Source: Dehalococcoidia bacterium (lineage in GTDB: Bacteria; Chloroflexota; Dehalococcoidia; Lucifugimonadales; Lucifugimonadaceae). Taken from it: a stretch of DNA of 64,000 nt. The stretch lies in assembly GCA_965205325.1 (NCBI GenBank), contig OZ242166.1, forward strand, positions 2,018,107 to 2,082,106, given 5' to 3'. A program made the translations under genes and the position numbers. The notes beneath the pieces are model-generated. The model saw nothing but the letters and a program-made list of their open reading frames with translations, was not told the origin of the DNA and searched no databases. Shown one piece after another: positions 10,742 to 38,792 of this stretch (positions are counted from its first letter, which is position 1; each line of letters opens with the position of its first letter).

Positions 10742-11971
10742 ATGGGTTCGGGCGACCGATTGCGCGATAATTCGCGGTTAGAGATGGCTACGAACGGGGA
10801 AGATCAGGTTAAACCGCCGCTTTTCCAGCGGATCAAAGCCCAAAACGTACTTTCGTTTGGGCCGGATGGGATTGATTTGGAGCTGGGGCCGTTGAATGTG
10901 CTGATTGGGCCGAATGGGTCAGGGAAGTCGAATTTGCTCGAATTATTCGGTTTGCTCCAAGCGGCGCCTAGGGAGGTCTCCTCACCGATCCAAAACGGAG
11001 GTGGTATCCATCATTGGATTTGGAAGGGCGATCCGAAACGGTCTAGCCAAATTGAAGCAGAGGTATCCACGCCGTATCGTAGACAGTATTTGGAACACAA
11101 ACTCGAGTTAGGAAGTATAGACCAGTCATTCCGGTTAATTTCCGAGTGGATATATAGACACTCCGATGGTGGAGTCGAAGTGATATTGCAGCCCACCGCA
11201 GAGGGACTGGTGGCGATCAAAGCATCGGGTATCGACGGGCAACCATCGCAATTCTTCAATATTTCGCGGTCCGATTCCGCACTTTCTCAGTTGAAAGGCC
11301 CCGGCATCTTCATCGAGTTCGAATACCTCAACGAGGCGTACACGGACTTGCGACTCTATCGAGACTGGAATTTCGGCACAGACGCCGTTTTTCGTCAACC
11401 CCAACGAACCGATGTGCCCCGCTTCCCGTTGAATGAAGATTTTTCGAATTTGGGGATGTTTCTCAATCGATTACAACAATCGGCTAAAGCGGAGAAGACG
11501 CTGATCGATAAGCTTCGAGACCTATACGAAGGATTGACGCATTTCACCTTGAATTTCGATGGTGGTACCGTACAGGTATATTTCCACGAAGGTGGTCGGA
11601 CTATCCCGGGAATACGCTTGTCAGACGGCAGCCTCAGATATCTGTGTCTGCTCGCGATACTCTTGGACCCGGAACCACCTAGATTCATCGCCATTGAAGA
11701 ACCAGAGTTGGGTATACATCCTGACCTGATGCCACAGATCGTTGATCTATTGGTTGACGCTTCGAGGCGAACTCAGCTTGTTGTGACAACGCACAACGAC
11801 ACGATTGTTGATGCGTTGAATGATCGGCCGGAGTCGGTCGTTGTCTGTGAGAAACATGATGGTCAGACTGAGTTCAAGCGGCTTGATCGGGGCGAGTTAT
11901 CGCACTGGTTGGAAAAATATCGGTTGGGCGAGTTGTGGACAAAGGGAGCGATTGGCGGGACTCGCTGGTGA
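10742..11971 (+). CDS. ABC/SMC-like AAA ATPase (AAA_15/AAA_21-type), no transmembrane partner
   Basis: 409-aa ORF. Walker A LIGPNGSGKSNLLE, signature-like LSDGSLRYLCLL, Walker B FIAIEEPELGIHPD, H-loop VVTTHN. Alternative start ATG 10784. The stop overlaps the start of the next gene. Confidence 0.85.
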   Translation: MGSGDRLRDNSRLEMATNGEDQVKPPLFQRIKAQNVLSFGPDGIDLELGPLNVLIGPNGSGKSNLLELFGLLQAAPREVSSPIQNGGGIHHWIWKGDPKRSSQIEAEVSTPYRRQYLEHKLELGSIDQSFRLISEWIYRHSDGGVEVILQPTAEGLVAIKASGIDGQPSQFFNISRSDSALSQLKGPGIFIEFEYLNEAYTDLRLYRDWNFGTDAVFRQPQRTDVPRFPLNEDFSNLGMFLNRLQQSAKAEKTLIDKLRDLYEGLTHFTLNFDGGTVQVYFHEGGRTIPGIRLSDGSLRYLCLLAILLDPEPPRFIAIEEPELGIHPDLMPQIVDLLVDASRRTQLVVTTHNDTIVDALNDRPESVVVCEKHDGQTEFKRLDRGELSHWLEKYRLGELWTKGAIGGTRW

Positions 11972-12561
11972 GTTCCTTCATTTACGTTGAGGGTGGGGGT
12001 TCGAAGTCAGTCGATATCGAATTGCGCGCAGGGTTCAAACGGTTATGGGAGCGTTGTGGATTTCAAGGCCGCCTGCCTAGAATGTTTCCGAGCGGTAGTA
12101 GACGTTCGGCATTCGAGGATTTCGAAAGCCACGTTGCCACAGCTGGTAGCGGGGATTTCGTGGCATTACTCGTTGATAGCGAGGACCCAGTCGACGACAT
12201 TGAGCGAACGTGGGGTCACCTTAGGCAACGAGACCAGTGGGCAAAACCTGCCAGTGCAAGCGATGATCAGGTGATGTTGATGACCACTTGCATGGAGACT
12301 TGGATCGTTGCTGATCGGGATGCGCTACGCGGACGGTACGCCCGCCGAAGCCTAAACGAAAACACATTGCCGCCGCTCGTAAATCTGGAAGCACGTAGCC
12401 GTCAGGATATCCAAAGACGATTGGAACGCGCAACGGATCGGCAATACCAGAAAGGCGAAGAATCGTTCAAAATACTTGGGCAACTCAACCCCGACAAATT
12501 AGCTGAGTTACTGCCGAGTTTTGAACGGGCGATACGTATATTGAACCAGCGATTAGGTTGA
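11968..12561 (+). CDS. DUF4276-like / Toprim-like small protein coupled to the ATPase
   Basis: ORF 11935..12561. A GTG at 11968 overlaps the ATPase TGA (GTGA). The N-terminus FIYVEGGGSKS...LRAGFKRLWERCGFQGRLPRMFPSGSRRSAFEDF matches my recollection of DUF4276 proteins. The conserved-looking Glu (YVEG) plus acidic LLVDSEDP resemble a Toprim E...DxD pattern. Family assignment not computed. Confidence 0.7.
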   Translation: MSSFIYVEGGGSKSVDIELRAGFKRLWERCGFQGRLPRMFPSGSRRSAFEDFESHVATAGSGDFVALLVDSEDPVDDIERTWGHLRQRDQWAKPASASDDQVMLMTTCMETWIVADRDALRGRYARRSLNENTLPPLVNLEARSRQDIQRRLERATDRQYQKGEESFKILGQLNPDKLAELLPSFERAIRILNQRLG

Positions 12562-12804
12562 TACGGAATAGTTGGCAGTGGCAATGATCGTAACGTTCGG
12601 TTGGTTCGGTTCGCACAAGCCACAAGGCCCCACATCCCAACTTGGCCGATCGTATCGCGCGGCGTAAGCAAAGGCGGAGTCCGCTTCGGGAAAAGATTTC
12701 CAGTGGCCGTTTTTCTTGTCCTTAACCCTTTCAGGGATGCTGTCGCAAGTTGACTTGTGTACCCGTGCTCGCCTGGTTGGTTTATCTACGTTTACGTGGT
12801 ACAA
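12553..12804 (-). CDS. Small Cys-containing hypothetical protein (83 aa)
   Basis: ORF only. Convergent with the DUF4276-like gene, with a 9-nt 3' overlap. RVHKSTCDS...CGLC arrangement. No family recognised. Confidence 0.4.
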   Translation of the reverse strand: MYHVNVDKPTRRARVHKSTCDSIPERVKDKKNGHWKSFPEADSAFAYAARYDRPSWDVGPCGLCEPNQPNVTIIATANYSVST

Positions 12805-12824: not shown

Positions 12825-14003
12825 CTAGTTATTCGTAAACGCCCCATCCGGCCTCCTCAAATGGGGGGACCAGCCGCGTGGGTCGGAGAGGCGTTGTTCG
12901 GCTACTTCTAGGTCCATGTCCACGCCCATACCGGGGGTGTCGGGGCACCATGCGTAGCCGTCTTCCCACTCGATCTGCTGGGGGAAGAGGTCGGTGGCGA
13001 AGGTGCCGGGTTGGCGGGGCATCTCTTGGACTCCGACGTTGGTGGATGCCATGCAGACGGAGACGCAGGCGGCGGTTGATACGGGTCCCAGAGGGTTGTG
13101 GGGGACGATGTCGATGTAGTGTGCTTCGGCCCAGTGGGTGATTTTTAGGGTCTCGGTGATCCCGCCCACGATGCATAGGTCGATGCGGCAGTAGTCGATG
13201 CTCTCGTCTTCGATGACTTCGCGGAAGGGCCACTTCGACCACCAGTGCTCGCCGGCGGCGAGGGGGACGTTGGTCTGGCGTCTGATGTTTTTGTATGAGG
13301 CCGGGTTTTCGGAGCGGACTGCATCTTCGACGAAGAAGGGTTTGAACTCTTCGAGTTGACGGCAGAGTTGGATCGAGTATGTGGGGTCGAGACGGGTGTG
13401 GACATCAGTGCAGATCTGGATGTCGGGGCCGACGGCTTCGCGGATGGCGCCGAACTGCTCTACTGCCATACTTATCGACTTCATCGGATCGAGTTCGGCG
13501 GTGGCGGGTCTGCGTCCGCCGTATACGCCGACTAAGGGAGTGGTGGTGGGTTGGCCGGTGCGGGCGAATTTCCATCCCGCGTCGACGTGGCGAAGGGCGT
13601 CTTCTACGATTTCTTCGGTGGTCTCGCCGCCGATGTGGGGGTAGCAGACGACTTTTTCGCGGGTTGGGCCGCCAAGGAGTTTGTACAAGGGAAGGCCCAC
13701 GGATTTTGCCTTGATGTCCCAGAGGGCGATGTCGATCCCGCTGATTGCGCAGGCGTAGACGCGTTCGGCAGGGAAGAAGAGGCCGCGGAACATCTGCTGC
13801 CAGAGGCGTTCGGTTTCCCACGGGTCGGAGCCGATAACGATCTCGGAGAGATGGTCGATTGCTAGCGCGATGGAGCGTCCGAGACGGGATACTCCGACTT
13901 CGCCTAGGCCGTAGATACCGGCGTCGGTATCGACGCGGACTATGAAGTAGAGGCGACCGGAGTCGTCTCGGACGGGGAATGATCGGATTTGGGTTACTTT
14001 CAT
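12825..14003 (-). CDS. Enolase-superfamily dehydratase (D-galactonate/D-mannonate dehydratase-like, mandelate racemase family)
   Basis: ORF 12825..14069. ATG 14003 gives MKVTQIRSFPVRDDSGRLYFIVRVDTDAGIYGLGEVG, the typical N-terminal capping domain. Also ISGIDIALWDIKAKSVGLPLYKLLGG and barrel acid residues (DVHTRL, FVEDAV, AAGEHW). Confidence 0.9.
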   Translation of the reverse strand: MKVTQIRSFPVRDDSGRLYFIVRVDTDAGIYGLGEVGVSRLGRSIALAIDHLSEIVIGSDPWETERLWQQMFRGLFFPAERVYACAISGIDIALWDIKAKSVGLPLYKLLGGPTREKVVCYPHIGGETTEEIVEDALRHVDAGWKFARTGQPTTTPLVGVYGGRRPATAELDPMKSISMAVEQFGAIREAVGPDIQICTDVHTRLDPTYSIQLCRQLEEFKPFFVEDAVRSENPASYKNIRRQTNVPLAAGEHWWSKWPFREVIEDESIDYCRIDLCIVGGITETLKITHWAEAHYIDIVPHNPLGPVSTAACVSVCMASTNVGVQEMPRQPGTFATDLFPQQIEWEDGYAWCPDTPGMGVDMDLEVAEQRLSDPRGWSPHLRRPDGAFTNN

Positions 14004-14092
14004 GTTGTTGTTCTTTTTTGTTGTTGTTCTTTTTTGGTTAGGTGCGAGTGATACGTTGATGGCGTGCACGGGCGGGTCACAGACCCGCGGGT

Positions 14093-14130
14093 CCTCACCT
14101 TAACCCTCTCTCGCCGAGCGGGAGAGGGGA
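14093..14130 (+). repeat. Family C hairpin repeat (cctcacc..CCCTCTCTCGCcgaGCGGGAGAGGGG)
   Basis: Lies in the 136-nt spacer between the tandem enolase paralogs. About 11-bp stem. Related copies at 15523, 17793, 57638 and 58816. Confidence 0.75.
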
Positions 14131-14139
14131 CTATGTTGT

Positions 14140-15303
14140 TTACCAGTTTGTGAATGCTCCGTCGTTGCGACGGAGTTGGGGTGTCCAGCCGTGGGGGTCG
14201 CCGGCTCGGGCTTCGGCGACGTCCATGTCCATTTCGATGCCGAGGCCAGGGGCGTCGTTGCAGAAGGCGTATCCGTCTTCCCAGCTGATTTGGACGGGGA
14301 AGAGGTCGGTGTTGTCGGTGCCGGGTTGGCGAGGCATTTCTTGGACGCCGACGTTTGTTGAGGCCATGCACAAGGAGACGCAGGCGGCGGCGGAGACGGG
14401 GCCGAGGGGGTTGTGAGGAACGATGTCGATGTAGTGGGTTTCGGCCCAGTGGGTGATCTTGGCGGCTTCGGTGATGCCGCCGACGATGCAGAGGTCAATG
14501 CGGGCGTAGTCGATGAGTTCCTCTTCGATGACCTGTCGGAAGGACCATTTGGAGACCCATTGTTCGCCCGCGGCGATGGGGACGGAGACTTGGTTGCGGA
14601 GGTTACGGTAGGAGCCGGGGTTTTCGGAGCGGATCAGGTCTTCGATGAAGTAGGGTTTGAACTCTTCGAGGTCCTTGCACATCTGGACGGTGTGCGCGGT
14701 GTCGAGTCGGGTGTGGGCGTCAAGGCAGAGCTGGATGTCGGGTCCGACGGCTTCGCGGACGCGGGCCATCTGGTCGACGGCGAGGCGCATGGATTCGACG
14801 GGTTCGAGGCGTGAGGTGCCGGATTGTTCAAATGCACCGGAGGTTTCGGGCTGTCCCCATCGGACGAATTTCCAGCCTTCTTCGACGCGGTCGAGGCAGT
14901 TCTGGACAAGGTCTTCGGTAGTTGCGCCTTGAGTGTGGGGGTAGCAGACGACTTTTTCTCGTACGGGTCCGCCGAGGAGTTTGTAAACGGGCATTTCGGC
15001 GGCTTTGCCTTTAATGTCCCATAAGGCGATGTCGATGGCGGAGATTGCGCATCCGTAGACGCGGTCTGCGGGGAAGAAGTTGCCTCGGAACATTAGCTGC
15101 CAGAGGCGCTCGGTCTCCCATGGGTCGGATCCAACGACGACTTCTGCGAGGTGGTCGACGGCTTCCATGATTGCGCGTCCCATGCTTGCGGTGCCGACTT
15201 CGCCGAGGCCGTGGATTCCGGCGTCGGTCTCGATGCGGACGAAGAGGGATACGCCTCCGCTGTCGGTTCTGACAGGGACGTTTTGGACTTTGGTGACCTT
15301 CAT
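14140..15303 (-). CDS. Enolase-superfamily dehydratase (tandem paralog)
   Basis: ORF 14140..15636. ATG 15303 gives MKVTKVQNVPVRTDSGGVSLFVRIETDAGIHGLGEVG, collinear with 12825..14003 along its length. The long N-terminal extension in the ORF track runs through repeat DNA. Confidence 0.9.
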   Translation of the reverse strand: MKVTKVQNVPVRTDSGGVSLFVRIETDAGIHGLGEVGTASMGRAIMEAVDHLAEVVVGSDPWETERLWQLMFRGNFFPADRVYGCAISAIDIALWDIKGKAAEMPVYKLLGGPVREKVVCYPHTQGATTEDLVQNCLDRVEEGWKFVRWGQPETSGAFEQSGTSRLEPVESMRLAVDQMARVREAVGPDIQLCLDAHTRLDTAHTVQMCKDLEEFKPYFIEDLIRSENPGSYRNLRNQVSVPIAAGEQWVSKWSFRQVIEEELIDYARIDLCIVGGITEAAKITHWAETHYIDIVPHNPLGPVSAAACVSLCMASTNVGVQEMPRQPGTDNTDLFPVQISWEDGYAFCNDAPGLGIEMDMDVAEARAGDPHGWTPQLRRNDGAFTNW

Positions 15304-15368
15304 GAGGGGCTCCGTGGGGAAGTGTGATGTTAATGATGGGGAATGATTGTAATGATTTTGAGAACTAG

Positions 15369-15597
15369 GATGTGAAGGATTTTTAAGGATTTGAAGGATG
15401 GTGTTGTGGTTGTTTCGGGTGGGCTGGGTTTTTTGGGGTTTTGGTGGGATTCTTGGGATTCTAGTCGTGGATGTTTGGGGATTCGCGGTGGGTGCGGTGT
15501 CGGGATGGGGGAGTCCTTCTGGCCCCGCTCCTCCCCGGGCCCTCTCCCGCCTAGCGAGAGAGGGGGTTTGTTGGTGGTTGATGGAGGTTTTGGTTGG
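15369..15597 (+). repeat. Mosaic repeat block upstream of the enolase paralog (GT-rich modules + family C hairpin + gatggaggttttggttgg module)
   Basis: 15369..15400 matches 58741..58772. 15443..15461 is identical to 34076..34094 (ggtgggattcttgggattc). 15474..15535 matches 57606..57655. The C hairpin is at 15523..15566. 15580..15597 recurs at 58899 and 59030. Confidence 0.8.
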
Positions 15598-15684
15598 GGG
15601 TATGTGGGTGGAGCGGTGATTTTGGCGTGAGCCCATCGATTGTTTGCAGACGTATTCCGGTACTATGATTGGAGCTAGAGGACC

Positions 15685-16086
15685 ATGATGCGTTATCCGA
15701 TTTTGATCTACAAGGATGAAGGAAGTTCGTACGGGGTTACGGTGCCGGATTTGTCGGGATGTTTTTCTGGTGGCGAGAGTTTGGAAGAGGCTTTAGCGGC
15801 GTCGGAAGAGGCGATTTTGACTCACATCGAGGTGCTGTTGATGGATGGCGAGGCTGTTCCGAAGCAGAGGCCGCTGGAGGAGCATCAGGCGAACGAGGAT
15901 TATGCTGATGGCGTTTGGGCGCTTGTGGATGCTGATGTTTCGAAGTTGTCGGGGAAGAGTGTGCGGGTGAATATCACGTTGCCGGAGCGGGTTTTGGCGA
16001 TTGTGGATGAGGCGACTAAGCGTGAGGGGGAGACGCGTTCGGGGTATTTGGCGCGGGCGGGGTTGGGGTATGTGGGGGAGTGTTAA
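15685..16086 (+). CDS. HicB-family antitoxin-like protein with C-terminal RHH/CopG-like tail
   Basis: 133-aa ORF. YPILIYKDEGSSYGVTVPDLSGCFSGGESLEEALAASEEAILTHIE is the HicB RNase-H-like fold signature. The C-terminal VNITLPERVLAIVDEATKREGETRSGYLARA is ribbon-helix-helix-like. No HicA ORF is adjacent. Confidence 0.8.
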   Translation: MMRYPILIYKDEGSSYGVTVPDLSGCFSGGESLEEALAASEEAILTHIEVLLMDGEAVPKQRPLEEHQANEDYADGVWALVDADVSKLSGKSVRVNITLPERVLAIVDEATKREGETRSGYLARAGLGYVGEC

Positions 16087-16157
16087 CAGGTACTGAATGT
16101 CATATTTGTTGGAGGATTGATCTAAAACCGATTTGCGATGATAAAACCACGACCAAC

Positions 16158-16952
16158 ATGTTTCATGGATTGAACAACAGCTTCCTTTATGCTACCCAGC
16201 AACTAGTATGCACGTTCCGCAATCAAGCAAGCGAGGGTATCACCAGTCGTGGAACAGGATTTTGGGTCAAGAATCGTCGCGATATAGGCTGTTTAGTGAC
16301 CAACAGACACGTCCTAGACGTGAGCTATGGTAAGCCGGAATTCGAAGGATACAAGTTGAGCCAGCTAAAAATTCTTGGGAAAGGATTGAAGCCGGGTTCG
16401 GATCGACCCGATATCGACCGTCGGTTCAACATCATCGATTTGGATGTCAAGTTTTCGCAGGATGAACGTAACGATGTAGCGTGTTTGATCAATCCTCGAG
16501 TCATGGTGCTCGACGGATCTGACGATGCGACTGTCGATTATTTTATTCCGCACGAAATCTTGGCGAGTAAAACGGACCTAGATGAACTCGTCAGTGTATG
16601 CGACTTTCTGGCATACGTGGGATTTCCAGCTTGGCACGACAAGCGCCAACAACGTCCGATCTTGCGAACTGGAACCGTATCAAGCGATCCGAGATACGAT
16701 TACTCTTGGTCTAACGAATACCAAGGGGAGTGCATAGCATTCGAAGCGTTTTCGTCCGATGGTTCGTCGGGAAGTCCTGTGTTTGCACTCCAAAAGGCTT
16801 TGAAACCGGGTGAAAACATCACGATTCCCGGTTATCGTGAATTGAAGTTGATTGGCGTCAACGCGGGTTATTTAGGTTCTGAAGACATGGCACACTCTGG
16901 GATATCCTACATGTACAAATCATCCGCGATCTTGGACATTATTGATGCTTGA
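16158..16952 (+). CDS. Trypsin-like (S1/Trypsin_2-type) serine protease, cytoplasmic
   Basis: ORF 16080..16952; ATG 16158 preferred. Candidate triad in order: His in GCLVTNRHV, Asp in ERNDVACL, Ser in SSDGSSGSPVF. Visibly more AT-rich than its neighbours. No signal peptide. Confidence 0.75.
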   Translation: MFHGLNNSFLYATQQLVCTFRNQASEGITSRGTGFWVKNRRDIGCLVTNRHVLDVSYGKPEFEGYKLSQLKILGKGLKPGSDRPDIDRRFNIIDLDVKFSQDERNDVACLINPRVMVLDGSDDATVDYFIPHEILASKTDLDELVSVCDFLAYVGFPAWHDKRQQRPILRTGTVSSDPRYDYSWSNEYQGECIAFEAFSSDGSSGSPVFALQKALKPGENITIPGYRELKLIGVNAGYLGSEDMAHSGISYMYKSSAILDIIDA

Positions 16953-17427: not shown

Positions 17428-20370
17428 TTATTGCTTAGGAGCTTCTACCGTTGCAATGTAACCGTCTTCAGACTCGGTTGGGTTGTAGGTGATTTGGGGG
17501 GCACCGCCGGCGTCGGCTACGTCGGGGGCTACTGGTTTTAGGGCGTCTAGTTGGTCGGTTGTGGCGGTGATGGTTAGGGTTGCTAGGGATTTTCCTAGTC
17601 CGATTTGGGCTTCGTGTTTTGCTTTTCGGACGGCGGCTATTGCTCGGCAGGCGGTCTGGAAGGATGTGGGGGATTCGGGTTTGGGTACGGGGGTTAGTTG
17701 GTAGCGGTTGGGGATTGCGCCTACGCGCCCCCTTTGTCCTTCGGACATTTCCCCCGCGAGCGGGGGCAACCCGGCCGCCTCACCACCCCGTTCACCCTCA
17801 CCCTGGCCCTCTCCCATCAAGGGAGAGGGGAGCCCAGCTTCCCCACCCCTCTGGATTCCGGCTTTCGCCGGAATGACGGTGGTTGGCCAGGGGGTTTGGT
17901 GGATGGATTTGTAGCCGGTTTCTTGGGCGTAGGTCCAGGACCAGATTTCGTCGGTGATTGTGGGGACGAAGGGGGCGAATAGGCGGAGGAGGGTGTTTAG
18001 GGCTAGGCGTAGGGTGGCTACTGCGGAGGCTCTGCCCTGCTCGTCGGTTTCGGATCGGGCGCGGCGTTTTACTAGTTCGATGTAGTTGTCGGCGAATGCG
18101 TCCCAGAAGAAGGTCTCGGTGATCTGAAGGGCGAGGGCGAACTCGAAGCGTTCGAAGGCATCGGTGGCCCGGCGGACGGTGTCTCGGAGGTCGTTGACGA
18201 ATGCTCGGTCGAGTTCGGTGGTGATTTCGCCGTGTTCGGCTTCTTGCATGAGGACGAATTTGCCGGCGTTGTATAGCTTGGTGACGAGTTTGCCGCCGAT
18301 GGTGAAGACGGTCTCGTCGAAGGCCATGTCCATGCCGGGGCGTCCGTTGGATGCCCAGTACCGTACGGCGTCGGCGCCGTATTGGTTGACGAGGGGCATG
18401 GGGGTGACGGGAGCGCCGCGGGACTTGGACATCTTCTTGCGGTCGGGGTCGACGATGAAGCCGGAGATCATGGCTTTGTGCCAGGGGACGTCGTCGTTGT
18501 GTAGTGCGGACTTGACGATGGTGTAGAAGGCCCAGGTGCGGATGATGTCGTGGGCTTGGGGTCGCAGGTCGGCCGGGTAGAGGTTGGACATGCGGTCGCC
18601 GTCTTCGCCCCAACGAGCCAGTATTTGGGGGGTCATGGACGAGGTGAACCAGGTGTCGAAGACGTCTTGCTCGCCGACGAAGCCGTTGGGTTTTCCGCGC
18701 TGGGATTCGTCGTATCCGGGCGCGGGGGTGAGAGTCGGATCGACGGGGAGCATGTCGTTTGTGGCGACGATGTATTGGTCGTACTGGATGTCGCCGTCTG
18801 CGTCGATGGGGTACCAGACGGGTATGGCGACGCCGAAGTAGCGCTGTCGGGAGATGGCCCAGTCGTGGCCTAGGCCGTCGGTCCAGTCGGCGTATCGCTT
18901 TTGCATGAATTCGGGTAGCCATTGGACTTTGGCACCGACTTCTTGGAGGTAGGGCTTCTTGTCCATGAGGCGGACGAACCACTGTCGTGACGGGATATAT
19001 TCGATGGGTGTGCTGCCCTTCTCGTAGTATCGGACGACGTGTTCGATGGGGCGCGGTGGCGATCGGAGCGGGTTTCGCGTTTCGACTTCGTCTTCAGCGC
19101 CTTGCATGGTTTTTGCCGCGGTGCCGGGGCAGCTGAGCTGTTCCACGATCTTGGTTCGGACATCGTCGAGAGGCATTCCGAGGAGTTGGTCATAGAAGAA
19201 TTGGGCGCGGAATGGGTCTAGGGAGCCCCAGTGGGTCGTTTGCGAGGTCCCCCTTTGTCCTTCGGACATTTCCCCCGCTGAGCGGGGGAAACCTGAATGT
19301 TCGTAGGGGACGAATGTGCGTGGTGCGGCTTCGCCGTTGCGGGCGACCATTGGTCGGAGTTCGAGGTCGTGGGTGCGCCACCATTCGACGTCGGCGTCAT
19401 CGCCGAATGTGCAGAGCATGAGGATGCCGGTGCCCTTTTCGGGGTCGGCTTTTTCGCTGGGGAATATGGGGACTTTGGCGAAGAATCCGGGAGTGATGGC
19501 GTGTTTGCCGAATAGTGGCTTGAAGCGTTCGTCGTCGGGGTGAGCGGTGACGGCGACGCAGGCGGGTATCATCTCGGGGCGGGTAGTGGAGATGACGAAG
19601 GATTCGGGTACGCCCTCTTCGCCTTCCATGAGGGATTCGTAGACGCCGAATTCGATGTCGTGGTATGCACCGGGTGTGGGTCGGTCTTCGACTTCGGCTT
19701 GTGCGACCGCGGTCTGGAAGTCGACGTCCCACATAGTGGGGAGTTCGGCGGTGTAGACATGACCGCGCTCGTCAAGGTCGAGGAAGGAACGCTGGGCGAT
19801 GGCGCGGCAGCGATCGTCGATGGTGGCGTATTCCTCGGTCCAGTCGATGGAGAATCCGAGGCGGTTGAAGAGTTCCTTGTAGGTCTTTTCGTCTTCGGCG
19901 GTGACGATGTGGCAGAGTTCGATGAAGTTTTCGCGTGAGACGACTAGCTGCTCATCTTTGTCGAGGCCGAGTTCTTTGCGGCGTTTTCGGACGTTGAGGT
20001 TTTCTACATAGGGGACGTTCGGTTCGGCACGGACGCCGAAGTAGTTCTGGACGCGGCGCTCGGTGGGAAGCCCGTTGTCGTCCCAGCCCATTGGGTACAC
20101 GACGTTCCATCCGGTCATGCGTCGATATCGTGCGATGACGTCTTGGTGGGTGTAGGAGAAGACGTGGCCGGGATGAAGGGAGCCGCTGGCGGTCGGTGGT
20201 GGCGAGTCGATGACAAAGCTCTGTTCGCGGGAAGCGGATTTGTCGTGTTTGGAGATTTCGAGGGCATCCCACTGGGTACGCCAGTAGGCCTCACGCTCCT
20301 TGACGTCAAAGCGGCGCGGGAGATCGCGGGGGTTTATGGAGATGACTTTGTTGTTGGTTTGGGTTGTCAC
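17428..20370 (-). CDS. valS: Valine--tRNA ligase (actinobacterial/long type) carrying two in-frame repeat-derived insertions
   Basis: ORF 17428..20439. Class I motifs PPPTASGSLHPGHVFSY (HIGH-like) and KKMSKSRG (KMSKS), plus WDDNGLPTE and the C-terminal AAVRKAKHEAQIGLGKSL domain. GTG 20370 is preferred (GGAGA 6 nt upstream); ATG 20439 is possible. Confidence 0.9.
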   Translation of the reverse strand: MTTQTNNKVISINPRDLPRRFDVKEREAYWRTQWDALEISKHDKSASREQSFVIDSPPPTASGSLHPGHVFSYTHQDVIARYRRMTGWNVVYPMGWDDNGLPTERRVQNYFGVRAEPNVPYVENLNVRKRRKELGLDKDEQLVVSRENFIELCHIVTAEDEKTYKELFNRLGFSIDWTEEYATIDDRCRAIAQRSFLDLDERGHVYTAELPTMWDVDFQTAVAQAEVEDRPTPGAYHDIEFGVYESLMEGEEGVPESFVISTTRPEMIPACVAVTAHPDDERFKPLFGKHAITPGFFAKVPIFPSEKADPEKGTGILMLCTFGDDADVEWWRTHDLELRPMVARNGEAAPRTFVPYEHSGFPRSAGEMSEGQRGTSQTTHWGSLDPFRAQFFYDQLLGMPLDDVRTKIVEQLSCPGTAAKTMQGAEDEVETRNPLRSPPRPIEHVVRYYEKGSTPIEYIPSRQWFVRLMDKKPYLQEVGAKVQWLPEFMQKRYADWTDGLGHDWAISRQRYFGVAIPVWYPIDADGDIQYDQYIVATNDMLPVDPTLTPAPGYDESQRGKPNGFVGEQDVFDTWFTSSMTPQILARWGEDGDRMSNLYPADLRPQAHDIIRTWAFYTIVKSALHNDDVPWHKAMISGFIVDPDRKKMSKSRGAPVTPMPLVNQYGADAVRYWASNGRPGMDMAFDETVFTIGGKLVTKLYNAGKFVLMQEAEHGEITTELDRAFVNDLRDTVRRATDAFERFEFALALQITETFFWDAFADNYIELVKRRARSETDEQGRASAVATLRLALNTLLRLFAPFVPTITDEIWSWTYAQETGYKSIHQTPWPTTVIPAKAGIQRGGEAGLPSPLMGEGQGEGERGGEAAGLPPLAGEMSEGQRGRVGAIPNRYQLTPVPKPESPTSFQTACRAIAAVRKAKHEAQIGLGKSLATLTITATTDQLDALKPVAPDVADAGGAPQITYNPTESEDGYIATVEAPKQ
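17727..17879 (+). repeat. Composite B-C-A repeat cassette lying inside the valS reading frame
   Basis: B 17727..17773, C 17793..17833, A 17846..17879. In valS it is translated as VIPAKAGIQRGGEAGLPSPLMGEGQGEGERGGEAAGLPPLAGEMSEGQRG. Confidence 0.85.
19248..19293 (+). repeat. Family B double-hairpin repeat inside the valS reading frame
   Basis: tccccctttGTCCttcGGACatTTCCCCCGCtgaGCGGGGGAAacc, translated in valS as GFPRSAGEMSEGQRG. Other copies at 17727, 33136 and 58934. Confidence 0.85.
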
Positions 20371-20468
20371 TCGGTGTCTCCAGTTGTTGTTTGTCGGGGG
20401 CTTTGAACCATGATTGCCATAATTTTTGGTGATGGACATGATGGGTGTTGGTTGTTCGGACGGGATAC

Positions 20469-37398: not shown

Positions 37399-38133
37399 TT
37401 ACGGGTTGTGGTGCACTAAATTATCGGGTAAACCAATTAGCAACAGAGGGCAGGGATTGCCGACACCACGTCGGACCCTTTCCATGAGTTTGGCCCAATG
37501 CGTAGTGGCCGTGCCAAACTTGTCAGTTACGAACGACCTGCTCCACTCGGTAGAGAAGTCGCTTCCTTCCAGACGTGTTTCGACTTGGTTGCGCTGGCGA
37601 ACGGTGGGGTTGTAATCGAACGTCGAAAGGTCGTCAAAGGACGTGATGTTTCGCCGACGTGCGAAGTCCAAAATAATCTGTTGCAACGATGACTGCAGAG
37701 ACGATCCTCGGGTGACAATCACACCTACACTGATGGCGCCTTCATGGTGGAGGCGTTGAAAATTCTCTAAATCTCGGTCATAAAATGGGTCTTTATTGTT
37801 CCATTCGATTTCGAGGGCGATCACCCCGGCGTCGGTTGCGCGCACATGATCGATAATGTGCGTGGTGGATTCTCGCTCCTCACCATCGACAGTCTTACCA
37901 ATCGTTATCTCGCGTTTCGGCCAACCGGAGTTTTCGAACGTCCTCCTTAGACGTTGAGTGAATGGGGCTTCTCCGCCGCCCCGGTGGACCAATTCCTCAA
38001 CTGGAATTGTGAAACCCAGCAAAACCTCACACAGCTCGGATACTGGTTTAGGGAAGTCCCGCTCCAACACAGCTTCAGCGTGATTCAATGATTGGATATT
38101 AAACCCGGCTAACGCCAAGTCTGTCAGGTTCAT
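37399..38133 (-). CDS. BglII/BstYI-like type II restriction endonuclease (putative)
   Basis: 244-aa ORF. IIDHVRATDAGVIALEIEWNNKDPFYDRDLENFQRL...ISVGVIVTRG parallels, from memory, the BglII core DIDFGKRDTLVEVQFSNYPF...KVAIIITKG. The N-terminal LNHAEAVL resembles YNHADEIL. ATGA overlap with the methylase gene. Confidence 0.65.
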   Translation of the reverse strand: MNLTDLALAGFNIQSLNHAEAVLERDFPKPVSELCEVLLGFTIPVEELVHRGGGEAPFTQRLRRTFENSGWPKREITIGKTVDGEERESTTHIIDHVRATDAGVIALEIEWNNKDPFYDRDLENFQRLHHEGAISVGVIVTRGSSLQSSLQQIILDFARRRNITSFDDLSTFDYNPTVRQRNQVETRLEGSDFSTEWSRSFVTDKFGTATTHWAKLMERVRRGVGNPCPLLLIGLPDNLVHHNP

Positions 38134-38792
38134 GCCAACACAGTCGCGGAATTGTAGTTATACGTGGGCCAGTCTGGTTCGTAGCTGTTGGTGGCTTGAT
38201 CACCCCAAACGGTCCATCCAGGCCGTGAGCCGCGGCCGAAGAGTTCCAAGTACGGACCCCACGAACAGGTTTCGATGATGTCGTATTGTTCGTCAGGTTT
38301 TCGAGAGTGTTCGCGCTTGCGACTTGCCATGAAATTCACCTGACGTCGACCAGGACCAAGCGTTCTAGCGTTGACGCCTCGAACGCCGAACAACACCATC
38401 TCAGTGACGTTGCGGAAATAGAACCCTACGCCCCGGCCATCTGAGCCACCATCTTTACGGATCTTGTGCCAGATCAGGTTCGTCTTATAAGTGAACCCCC
38501 ACGCCTCAAGCACCGCCAATCCATCTGGTAACAATGCATTCGGTACCCAAAGGTAGCAATGAGCAGTTTCGGCTAGATGATCTCCAACCGGCAATGCCGC
38601 GATCTCGTCGACTGACAGGGTCTCATAACGCGACAGTCGGCGGTGTTCGGGAGCGACTTTGCCCGTACGGTTGATGAAACGCCAAGGGGGATCTGCCAGA
38701 ATGGTCGAGAAGAGTTGGCCCTTTAGGTCACGTCGGAGGTCATCGCCTGCACTCATACGTCCAGTGTACCGCCAGTTCGTTGCAACGGTCAA
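38130..38792 (-). CDS. MT-A70-family N6-adenine DNA methyltransferase
   Basis: 220-aa ORF with the catalytic ILADPPWRF (DPPW) motif, plus LWVPNALL and SRKPDE. Confidence 0.85.
   Translation of the reverse strand: MTVATNWRYTGRMSAGDDLRRDLKGQLFSTILADPPWRFINRTGKVAPEHRRLSRYETLSVDEIAALPVGDHLAETAHCYLWVPNALLPDGLAVLEAWGFTYKTNLIWHKIRKDGGSDGRGVGFYFRNVTEMVLFGVRGVNARTLGPGRRQVNFMASRKREHSRKPDEQYDIIETCSWGPYLELFGRGSRPGWTVWGDQATNSYEPDWPTYNYNSATVLA

Follow-up and report, generated by a model that had tools for sequence, protein, structure and literature searches.

A HEC-01 gene pair as an accessory insertion between metabolic genes of a Dehalococcoidia bacterium

What is the role of two overlapping genes, coding for an ABC-type ATPase and a DUF4276 protein, that lie between unrelated metabolic genes of a Dehalococcoidia bacterium? 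The genes were noticed in a stretch of 64,000 nucleotides of contig OZ242166.1 (assembly GCA_965205325.1, positions 2,018,107 to 2,082,106 of the forward strand), which is called the window here and supplies all coordinates below. An original prediction, made from the sequence alone, took them for a candidate defence module resembling an OLD nuclease split in two. Sequence comparison identifies the pair as a member of HEC-01, a candidate anti-phage system that has already been catalogued, and not as a new system. We consider it probable that the pair acts against phages or mobile elements, as an OLD-type nuclease divided between two translationally coupled genes.

HEC-01 (Hma-embedded candidate 01; PADLOC-DB v2) pairs an ABC ATPase with a TOPRIM protein and was found embedded in Hma systems; both proteins have been modelled, with a conserved metal site recognized by comparison with the OLD protein of Burkholderia pseudomallei (Payne et al., bioRxiv 10.1101/2024.01.29.577857). 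In a cold-seep (environmental) dataset, HEC-01 is reported to belong to the commonest types of system. The paper on Menshen lists DUF4276 and RloB as members of the Toprim superfamily and Mad4 as a DUF4276 homologue, and the paper on PARIS counts an AAA_15/21 and DUF4276 pair (MADS3-4) among ATPase-Toprim systems. With HEC-01, MADS3-4 and the Toprim nature of DUF4276 all in print, the split-OLD logic is not new, and the belief that such a pair had escaped experimental characterization was mistaken, since HEC-01 has been published and tested twice.

Architecture of the pair and its assignment to HEC-01

The two genes are as follows.

10784..11971, + strand: HEC-01A, a soluble ABC-type (OLD/SMC-head-like) ATPase of 395 amino acids (Pfam, PADLOC, model, Foldseek).
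11968..12561, + strand: HEC-01B, a DUF4276 protein of 197 amino acids, Toprim-like and predicted to be a metal-dependent nuclease (Pfam, PADLOC, model).

Comparison with PADLOC-DB, which the original prediction had proposed as a check, gave full-length matches for both products: the ATPase matches HEC-01A (PDLC04177) at 1.1e-140, with residues 27-409 (in 409-residue numbering) on positions 4-393 of the 393-position profile, and the DUF4276 protein matches HEC-01B (PDLC04201) at 9.3e-57, with residues 4-195 on positions 5-199 of 202. The genes are adjacent on one strand, in the gene order of HEC-01, and share the four nucleotides GTGA (11968-11971). The pair and HEC-01 agree in this order and in their description as an ABC ATPase with a TOPRIM-like partner, and do not differ in kind; the copy examined here stands out by its uncultured Dehalococcoidia-like genome and its location outside Hma or restriction operons, and it represents one of several HEC-01 sub-models.

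The ATPase domain is of the OLD/SMC-head ABC type, with intact nucleotide-binding motifs. Pfam detects AAA_21 (3e-32) and AAA_15 (2e-12), while SMC_N and AAA_23 match the N-terminus more weakly, so that the class predicted for the first gene stands; the predicted length of 409 residues does not. That length belongs to the mechanical open reading frame (ORF), 10742-11971 on the + strand. Comparison with related loci indicates that translation almost certainly starts at the ATG at 10784, giving 395 residues, and that 10742 is an unlikely start, because the closest homologue is 395 residues long, the sequence TGCGATAATTCGCGGnTAGAGATG immediately 5' of 10784 is retained in four of the five aligned related occupied loci (the fifth, L012, has two mismatches), and the start codon at 10742 is not conserved among these loci. 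Residues below follow the 395-residue numbering, and conservation is given for an alignment of 47 homologues. All motifs quoted in the original prediction are present, invariant or nearly so; they are listed here together with the variable Insert-1:

10907..10930, + strand: Walker A motif GPNGSGKS, residues 42-49, invariant or nearly so.
11009..11278, + strand: Insert-1, a hypervariable beta-sheet region, residues 76-165 (allele identity, DNA alignment, model).
11615..11644, + strand: ABC signature-like motif RLSDGSLRYL, residues 278-287, conserved.
11684..11707, + strand: Walker B motif FIAIEEPE, residues 301-308, with E305, E306, P307 and E308 invariant or nearly so.
11786..11797, + strand: H-loop TTHN, residues 335-338, with T335, T336 and H337 invariant.

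A Q-loop-like SILSQ and an HPD motif are conserved to the same degree. In nearly the whole family, Walker B has the form IEEPE, in which a Glu stands where Asp is usual, and the H-loop takes the form TTHN/S across the homologues. The structural model has a pLDDT (predicted local distance difference test) score of 85, and Insert-1 appears in it as four long predicted beta strands. The top match of this model in the PDB, by Foldseek, is the OLD nuclease of Thermus scotoductus (6p74, 3.5e-14), followed by SMC heads, Rad50 heads and the PtuA proteins of retron/Septu systems; 6p74 is also the best PDB match by sequence (2.7e-6), over the P-loop only.

The second gene had been described as coding for about 200 residues from a GTG that overlaps the ATPase stop, and as a DUF4276 protein; both points hold. 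Its longest ORF begins at a GTG at 11935, and the in-frame GTG at 11968 gives 197 residues; since approximately 880 homologues are 196-202 residues long, the start at 11968 fits and the upstream GTG does not. The Pfam match to DUF4276, a check that the prediction had asked for, is at 7e-15. When 41 homologues are aligned, residues E8, G10, D70, S71, E72, M109 and E110 are invariant. The motif after strand 3 consists of the invariant D70-S71-E72 followed mostly by D73, i.e., DxE(D) and not a literal DxD. The acidic positions are these:

11989..11991, + strand: Glu8 (YVEGGG), candidate for the first Toprim acidic residue, located where strand 1 ends (invariant; model secondary structure).
12175..12186, + strand: D70-S71-E72-D73 (LLVDSEDP), after strand 3 (residues 64-70), candidate counterpart of DxD (D70, S71 and E72 invariant).
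12295..12297, + strand: Glu110 (CMETWI), likewise acidic and invariant, after strand 4 (41 homologues).

The model of this protein (pLDDT 95) has a core of b1-a-b2-a-b3-a-b4, continued by helices. Its two top matches in the PDB are both chains of 6nk8, the Toprim-containing C-terminal region of B. pseudomallei OLD; the likeness is weak (E 0.023 and 0.27, probability 0.97 and 0.75, template modelling (TM) score 0.47-0.49). The top viral structural match, an RloB-like protein, is weak as well (E 0.26). The model and the invariant E8, D70, E72 and E110, which occupy the places foreseen for the acidic residues of a Toprim, suggest that the Toprim-like fold foreseen for this protein is likely present, and the protein would then be a nuclease. 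The published analyses of HEC-01 and of Menshen arrive at this assignment too. Clustered at 50% identity, the family comprises 2141 representatives at E <= 0.001; among the best 150 of these, nearly all are stand-alone proteins of approximately 200 residues, and there are no fusions of ATPase length.

The arrangement of the two genes is conserved together with their products. Two further elements are relevant here:

11954..11971, + strand: coupling junction, with Shine-Dalgarno-like GGCGGG at 11954-11959 and the GTG start at 11968-11970 overlapping the TGA stop at 11969-11971.
10760..10783, + strand: conserved upstream element TTGCGCGATAATTCGCGGTTAGAG, with -10-like GATAAT at 10766-10771, 12 nucleotides before the ATPase start.

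Related loci were collected from Chloroflexota, Planctomycetota, Verrucomicrobiota, Acidobacteriota, Proteobacteria, Cyanobium and Methanosarcinaceae, and 75 of the 84 have the same junction, GGNGGN-NNN-CGN-TGG-TGA with a GTGA overlap. It brings together a Shine-Dalgarno-like GG-rich box, the final Trp codon of the ATPase and the GTG start over the TGA stop, and its nucleotides double as codons for the invariant C-terminal GGxRW of the ATPase. In nearly all loci that are not cut by a contig end, the ATPase gene is directly 5' of the DUF4276 gene. Because the same junction recurs in so many loci from many phyla, the coupling, anticipated from this one copy, is a trait of the family and goes beyond chance.

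The last residues of the ATPase, LGELWxxGxxGGxRW, are invariant, yet pLDDT is below 50 over the final nine (387-395; 11950-11967). The same nucleotides hold the ribosome-binding site and the start of the next gene, so that the tail may be conserved as a protein interface, as a signal for translation, or as both.

The upstream element is retained in four of the five occupied syntenic loci (with two mismatches in L012), though the ATPases there are only 55-63% identical, and it is missing from an unoccupied version of the site described below (contig L086). Judging from this pattern, it probably serves the pair as promoter and short leader. A simple sigma-70 scan made no call at the element, and the scan for promoters and terminators was uninformative, with counts at or under shuffle expectation.

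The neighbours of the pair in other phyla place it in the company of restriction systems. As a neighbourhood check of the kind suggested in the original prediction, we took 36 non-syntenic loci and considered the two genes on each flank of the pair, which makes 144 proteins. Families of the type I restriction R subunit are the commonest in Pfam: 7 proteins have SWI2_SNF2, ResIII and DEAD, and 6 have HSDR_N and T1R_D3. They are followed by DUF1016, Schlafen/AlbA_2 with HATPase_c_4, Methylase_S, N6_Mtase and HsdM_N, and then by assorted metabolic genes. Two loci, L014 and L047, have the order HsdS, ATPase, DUF4276 protein, HsdR on one strand, and in L058 and L066 HsdR directly follows the DUF4276 gene. 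Genes for hsdR are generally rare, and the enrichment is judged against this rarity and not against a computed control. The guilt-by-embedding argument that defined HEC-01 is thus reproduced on an independent sample.

The insertion site and its alleles

The closest genome relatives of the window are metagenome-assembled genomes of Dehalococcoidia. Seven related contigs carry the pair at the same site, with a short-chain dehydrogenase gene upstream and an MR_MLE (enolase-superfamily) gene downstream on the opposite strand. In one metagenome contig, L086, the site is empty: directly behind the stop codon of the dehydrogenase gene come a small conserved ORF and then the MR_MLE gene. The pair is also missing from more distant relatives. 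Because the flanks of the empty site are as similar to those of the window (88-93%) as the flanks of the occupied contigs are, the pair is an accessory insertion of approximately 1.8 kb between two metabolic genes, which agrees with the small insertion among metabolic genes that had been proposed. The GC content of the pair is 49-53%, against 55-61% for the flanking genes. No direct or inverted repeats flank the insertion, no integrase was found nearby, and the window has no tRNA gene and no Rfam match. The genes around the pair code for the short-chain dehydrogenase, a molybdopterin oxidoreductase and enolase-superfamily proteins.

The small ORF of the empty site has a counterpart in the window, at 12553-12804 on the - strand, between the DUF4276 and MR_MLE genes, where it codes for 83 residues and shares 9 nucleotides with the 3' end of the DUF4276 gene. 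Neither Pfam nor PADLOC has a match for it. In L002, L003, L012 and the empty-site contig L086, homologues with 46-55% identity occupy the same position, so that it is probably a real small gene that is older than the insertion.

The alleles found at this site are far more diverged than the genes around them. The comparison with the window, leaving aside the closest contig, L001, gives the following values.

Flanking genes: protein identity 87-97%; nonsynonymous divergence (dN) 0.03-0.09.
ATPase gene: protein identity 53-63%; dN 0.28-0.38.
DUF4276 gene: protein identity 56-74%; dN 0.20-0.37.

The pair thus diverges approximately 5 times faster than its flanks. Synonymous divergence (dS) of the pair likewise exceeds that of the flanks; lying near or beyond saturation, it does not separate old alleles from fast evolution. 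Within the ATPase the divergence is concentrated. The P-loop lobe is approximately 75% identical among the syntenic alleles and the signature/Walker B lobe approximately 82%, as against approximately 20% for Insert-1, which is no better than between homologues from other phyla; the DNA alignment to the syntenic loci collapses at Insert-1. By analogy with a proposal made for HEC-01 (Payne et al., bioRxiv 10.1101/2024.01.29.577857), Insert-1 may be the trigger-sensing surface, and the alleles point to it as the likely specificity determinant.

Neighbour-joining trees, which were built without support values and differ in detail between the two proteins, place the syntenic Dehalococcoidia alleles together within a Chloroflexota clade, on long branches; the exception is L019 in the ATPase tree. 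Since the syntenic alleles cluster in this clade, we rejected their replacement by transfer from other phyla, and the trees point to divergence, or exchange of alleles, inside the lineage. The closest contig, L001, has an ATPase 97% identical to that of the window and a DUF4276 protein 83-84% identical. At the DNA level, it is 90-100% identical to the window over the pair, like over the flanks, up to approximately 12340; identity then drops to 63% and is lost. The lost stretch (7100-7350 of L001) corresponds to approximately 12340-12561 of the window, that is, to the last 70 or so codons, or the last third, of the DUF4276 gene; L001 also has no 83-residue ORF. A recombination or an indel thus seems to have its breakpoint near 12340, within the nuclease gene.

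Our tentative suggestion, which we hold as possible rather than probable, is that HEC-01 in this Dehalococcoidia lineage may be a fixed-site, allelically hypervariable immune locus. The suggestion is made because one and the same site holds deeply diverged alleles (approximately 20% identity in Insert-1, 80% in the catalytic lobes and 90% in the flanks) and because close relatives seem to have exchanged the last third (3') of the nuclease gene.

Possible mechanism, related systems and rival explanations

By analogy with OLD, Gabija and PARIS, the two proteins would be produced in a fixed proportion from one transcript and would form a complex. The variable insert of the ATPase would sense a cue of infection, binding or hydrolysis of ATP would license or release the Toprim nuclease, and the nuclease would cleave DNA or tRNA, halting either phage replication or the infected cell.

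OLD nucleases (class 1, P2 Old; class 2, the B. pseudomallei and T. scotoductus proteins) are structurally closest to both models, with 6p74 for the ATPase and, weakly, 6nk8 for its partner, in keeping with the ATPase-plus-Toprim, split-OLD logic of the original prediction. Like the pair, they combine an ABC ATPase with a Toprim nuclease containing an acidic metal-binding cluster, the nuclease being only predicted for the DUF4276 protein. They differ in being single polypeptides, whereas the pair is made of two ORFs with a stop/start overlap; the DUF4276 protein also has no match to Pfam Toprim_Old and no profile similarity to the P2 Old Toprim, and its DxE(D) contrasts with the DxD of OLD. 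A single-chain OLD was rejected on account of the two ORFs and the lack of fusions among the best 150 of the 2141 representatives.

The domain pairing of AAA_15/21 ATPase and DUF4276 is shared with Mad3/Mad4 of MADS. The ATPase matches mad3 weakly (4.7e-20 in PADLOC, 1.2e-20 in NCBIfam) and scores 74 bits against the NCBIfam MAD3 model NF047739, where the cut-off is 420; its partner has no NCBIfam match and no match to mad4 in PADLOC. With the MAD3 score below the cut-off, no Mad4 match and no other mad genes adjacent, MADS was rejected. Elsewhere in the window, matches to mad3 and mad8 are equal in number to the ABC-transporter proteins. AbiL (AbiLi/AbiLii) and RloA/RloB likewise pair an ATPase with a small protein of the Toprim superfamily, and RloA/RloB are found in type I restriction loci, just as relatives of the pair lie between hsdS and hsdR. 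The ATPase matches AbiLi at 9e-26 in PADLOC. These systems were rejected as well, as the DUF4276 protein matches neither RloB (PF13707) nor the AbiLii hidden Markov model (HMM), its structural likeness to RloB being weak.

PARIS (AriA/AriB), a class 4 OLD-like system, is the closest two-gene precedent, as it too encodes an AAA_15/21 ABC ATPase and a Toprim effector separately. It suggests a rival explanation, namely that an ATPase oligomer restrains the Toprim protein until a phage anti-restriction protein sets it free, and the host tRNA is then cleaved in abortive infection. AriA and AriB act in this way, and relatives of our pair are positioned between hsdS and hsdR, where a back-up that senses anti-restriction proteins would be expected; the DUF4276 protein, small and stand-alone in nearly all of the best 150 representatives, could act once freed. 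The ATPase even has a partial AriA match (5e-31 in PADLOC), confined to the C-terminal lobe, but its match to HEC-01A is far stronger and by HMM score the 395-residue protein lacks AriA-specific architecture. AriB is a DUF4435 protein, whereas the partner here matches only the DUF4276 and HEC-01B models in Pfam and PADLOC and has no match to DUF4435, for which reason PARIS itself was rejected. The hexameric AriA scaffold and tRNA cleavage by AriB are features of PARIS, while our pair is known from genes and models, and next to this copy there is no restriction system to be guarded. We regard such a guard as rather unlikely here; it departs from the split-OLD explanation solely in substrate and logic, the release of an RNase taking the place of an ATP-driven DNA nuclease complex.

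Could the pair instead be selfish, an addiction cassette similar to toxin-antitoxin modules, in which the ATPase holds a toxic Toprim nuclease and no dedicated anti-phage role exists? Overlapping genes with strictly conserved coupling, an accessory distribution, further toxin-antitoxin-like genes nearby and the Pfam text for AAA_21 ('putative AbiEii toxin, Type IV TA system', TA being toxin-antitoxin) would suit such a cassette. Addiction modules are common on plasmids, and the DUF4276 subfamily was not found in the plasmid collection that we searched. A cassette of this kind would also leave unexplained why divergence is focused on a surface insert of the ATPase and why the pair is repeatedly embedded in restriction operons, and one HEC-01 representative protected cells against phage. 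We judge this explanation improbable; it overlaps in part with the anti-phage one, as many abortive-infection systems resemble toxin-antitoxin pairs.

Least probable of all is a housekeeping function in DNA repair or replication restart. The same two folds come together in RecF and RecR, an ABC/SMC-like ATPase and a Toprim protein respectively; the ATPase studied here has a weak match to RecF, and the pair resides among metabolic genes at the same site in several Dehalococcoidia species. That match, however, amounts to 22 bits against the 172 required by TIGR00611 and is limited to the P-loop, and RecF/RecR as such was rejected because of the score. A close relative with the same flanks has no pair; the pair evolves approximately 5 times faster than its flanks and contains a hypervariable insert; it is scattered over distant phyla at approximately 50% identity, with relatives inside restriction operons. 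The empty site and this evolutionary pattern effectively exclude a housekeeping repair role.

Several observations weigh against our preferred explanation, an anti-phage OLD-type nuclease split into two genes. The locus lies outside any defence island, the remainder of the 64-kb window being made of transport, metabolism and housekeeping genes, and tblastn with the DUF4276 protein did not find its subfamily in phage and plasmid collections. The Toprim assignment itself is challenged on several counts: the model has no match in the PDB at E <= 0.001, and its TM score to the OLD Toprim is below 0.5; a Pfam scan detects no family of the Toprim clan; a profile of the 41 homologues, compared with solved structures, finds no Toprim, its best match being unrelated (E 0.12); hhalign against the P2 Old Toprim region gives a probability of 0.2, the search for homologues from the P2 Old C-terminal region having returned 5 proteins only, too few for a profile; and the second acidic motif is DxE(D) where the canonical Toprim has DxD. 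Experimental data on the family are contradictory. In E. coli MG1655 deltaRM, HEC-01 protected neither against the BASEL subset nor against classic coliphages, in what is the only quantitative many-phage screen of the system (Payne et al., bioRxiv 10.1101/2024.01.29.577857). A later study, which picked a single HEC-01 cluster at random, reports that it protected E. coli B from one or more of T4, T5 and T7, and the text of that study gives no fold-change for HEC-01. The alleles used in both studies differ from the allele described here.

Other features of the window, and what the locus adds

A second small accessory module, possibly related to defence, seems to be located 3 kb downstream of the pair; toxin-antitoxin and protease modules had been predicted nearby. 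A HicB-like antitoxin gene (15685-16086, + strand; Pfam HicB_lk_antitox, 4e-46) overlaps the start of a gene for a trypsin-like protease (16080-16952, + strand; Trypsin_2 at 2e-7, PADLOC PDC-S45 at 5.7e-19). GC content in this region is approximately 47%, compared with the window mean of 56%, and the syntenic relatives have no homologue of either gene. Between the pair and this region, at 12825-15636 on the - strand, there are tandem paralogous MR_MLE genes, approximately 66% identical to each other; in relatives (L002, L004, L006, L007 and L012), two to four copies occur in a row.

Among the other genes of the window are those for transporters, SecA, LytB, ValRS and one MT-A70 methyltransferase. 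The MT-A70 protein has matches at 2e-28 in Pfam and at 1.8e-88 to MTase_II in PADLOC, and the ORF at 38130-38789 (- strand), which contains a DPPW motif, probably encodes this MT-A70-type DNA methyltransferase. A hairpin-forming repeat of approximately 45 nucleotides, beginning with CCCCCTTTGTCCTTCGGACATTTCCCCCGC, is present in four copies, all on the + strand, at 17728-17772, 19249-19293, 33143 and 58941. Two of the copies are in frame within the valS ORF (17428-20439, - strand), which is unusually long (1003 residues), and encode a repeated peptide, GEMSEGQRG. A palindromic repeat of 27 nucleotides, GGATTCCGGCTTTCGCCGGAATGACGG, also has four + strand copies (3087, 17853, 33198 and 58013; 0 expected by chance), one of them within the valS ORF, and looks like an element of the REP (repetitive extragenic palindromic) or MITE (miniature inverted-repeat transposable element) kind. 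The + strand of the window contains 20299 G and 15792 C, and GC skew is positive in all 600-nucleotide windows examined between 5000 and 18800, independently of gene orientation.

As a discovery, the pair carries little weight, given that it matches an existing PADLOC candidate and that the split-OLD logic has been published. What is added here is a pair of occupied and empty sites, together with a series of syntenic alleles whose divergence centres on a single insert in the ATPase; these provide a concrete hypothesis on the seat of specificity and a reasoned basis for selecting alleles. HEC-01 is poorly understood, its experimental evidence is contradictory, and the locus serves as data on the family. 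If the locus is indeed hypervariable at a fixed site, and if this is due to selection, diversifying or balancing, on how the trigger is recognized, the naturally occurring alleles would show where in HEC-01 specificity is determined, and hypervariable alleles could account for the contradictory phage phenotypes of its single representatives.

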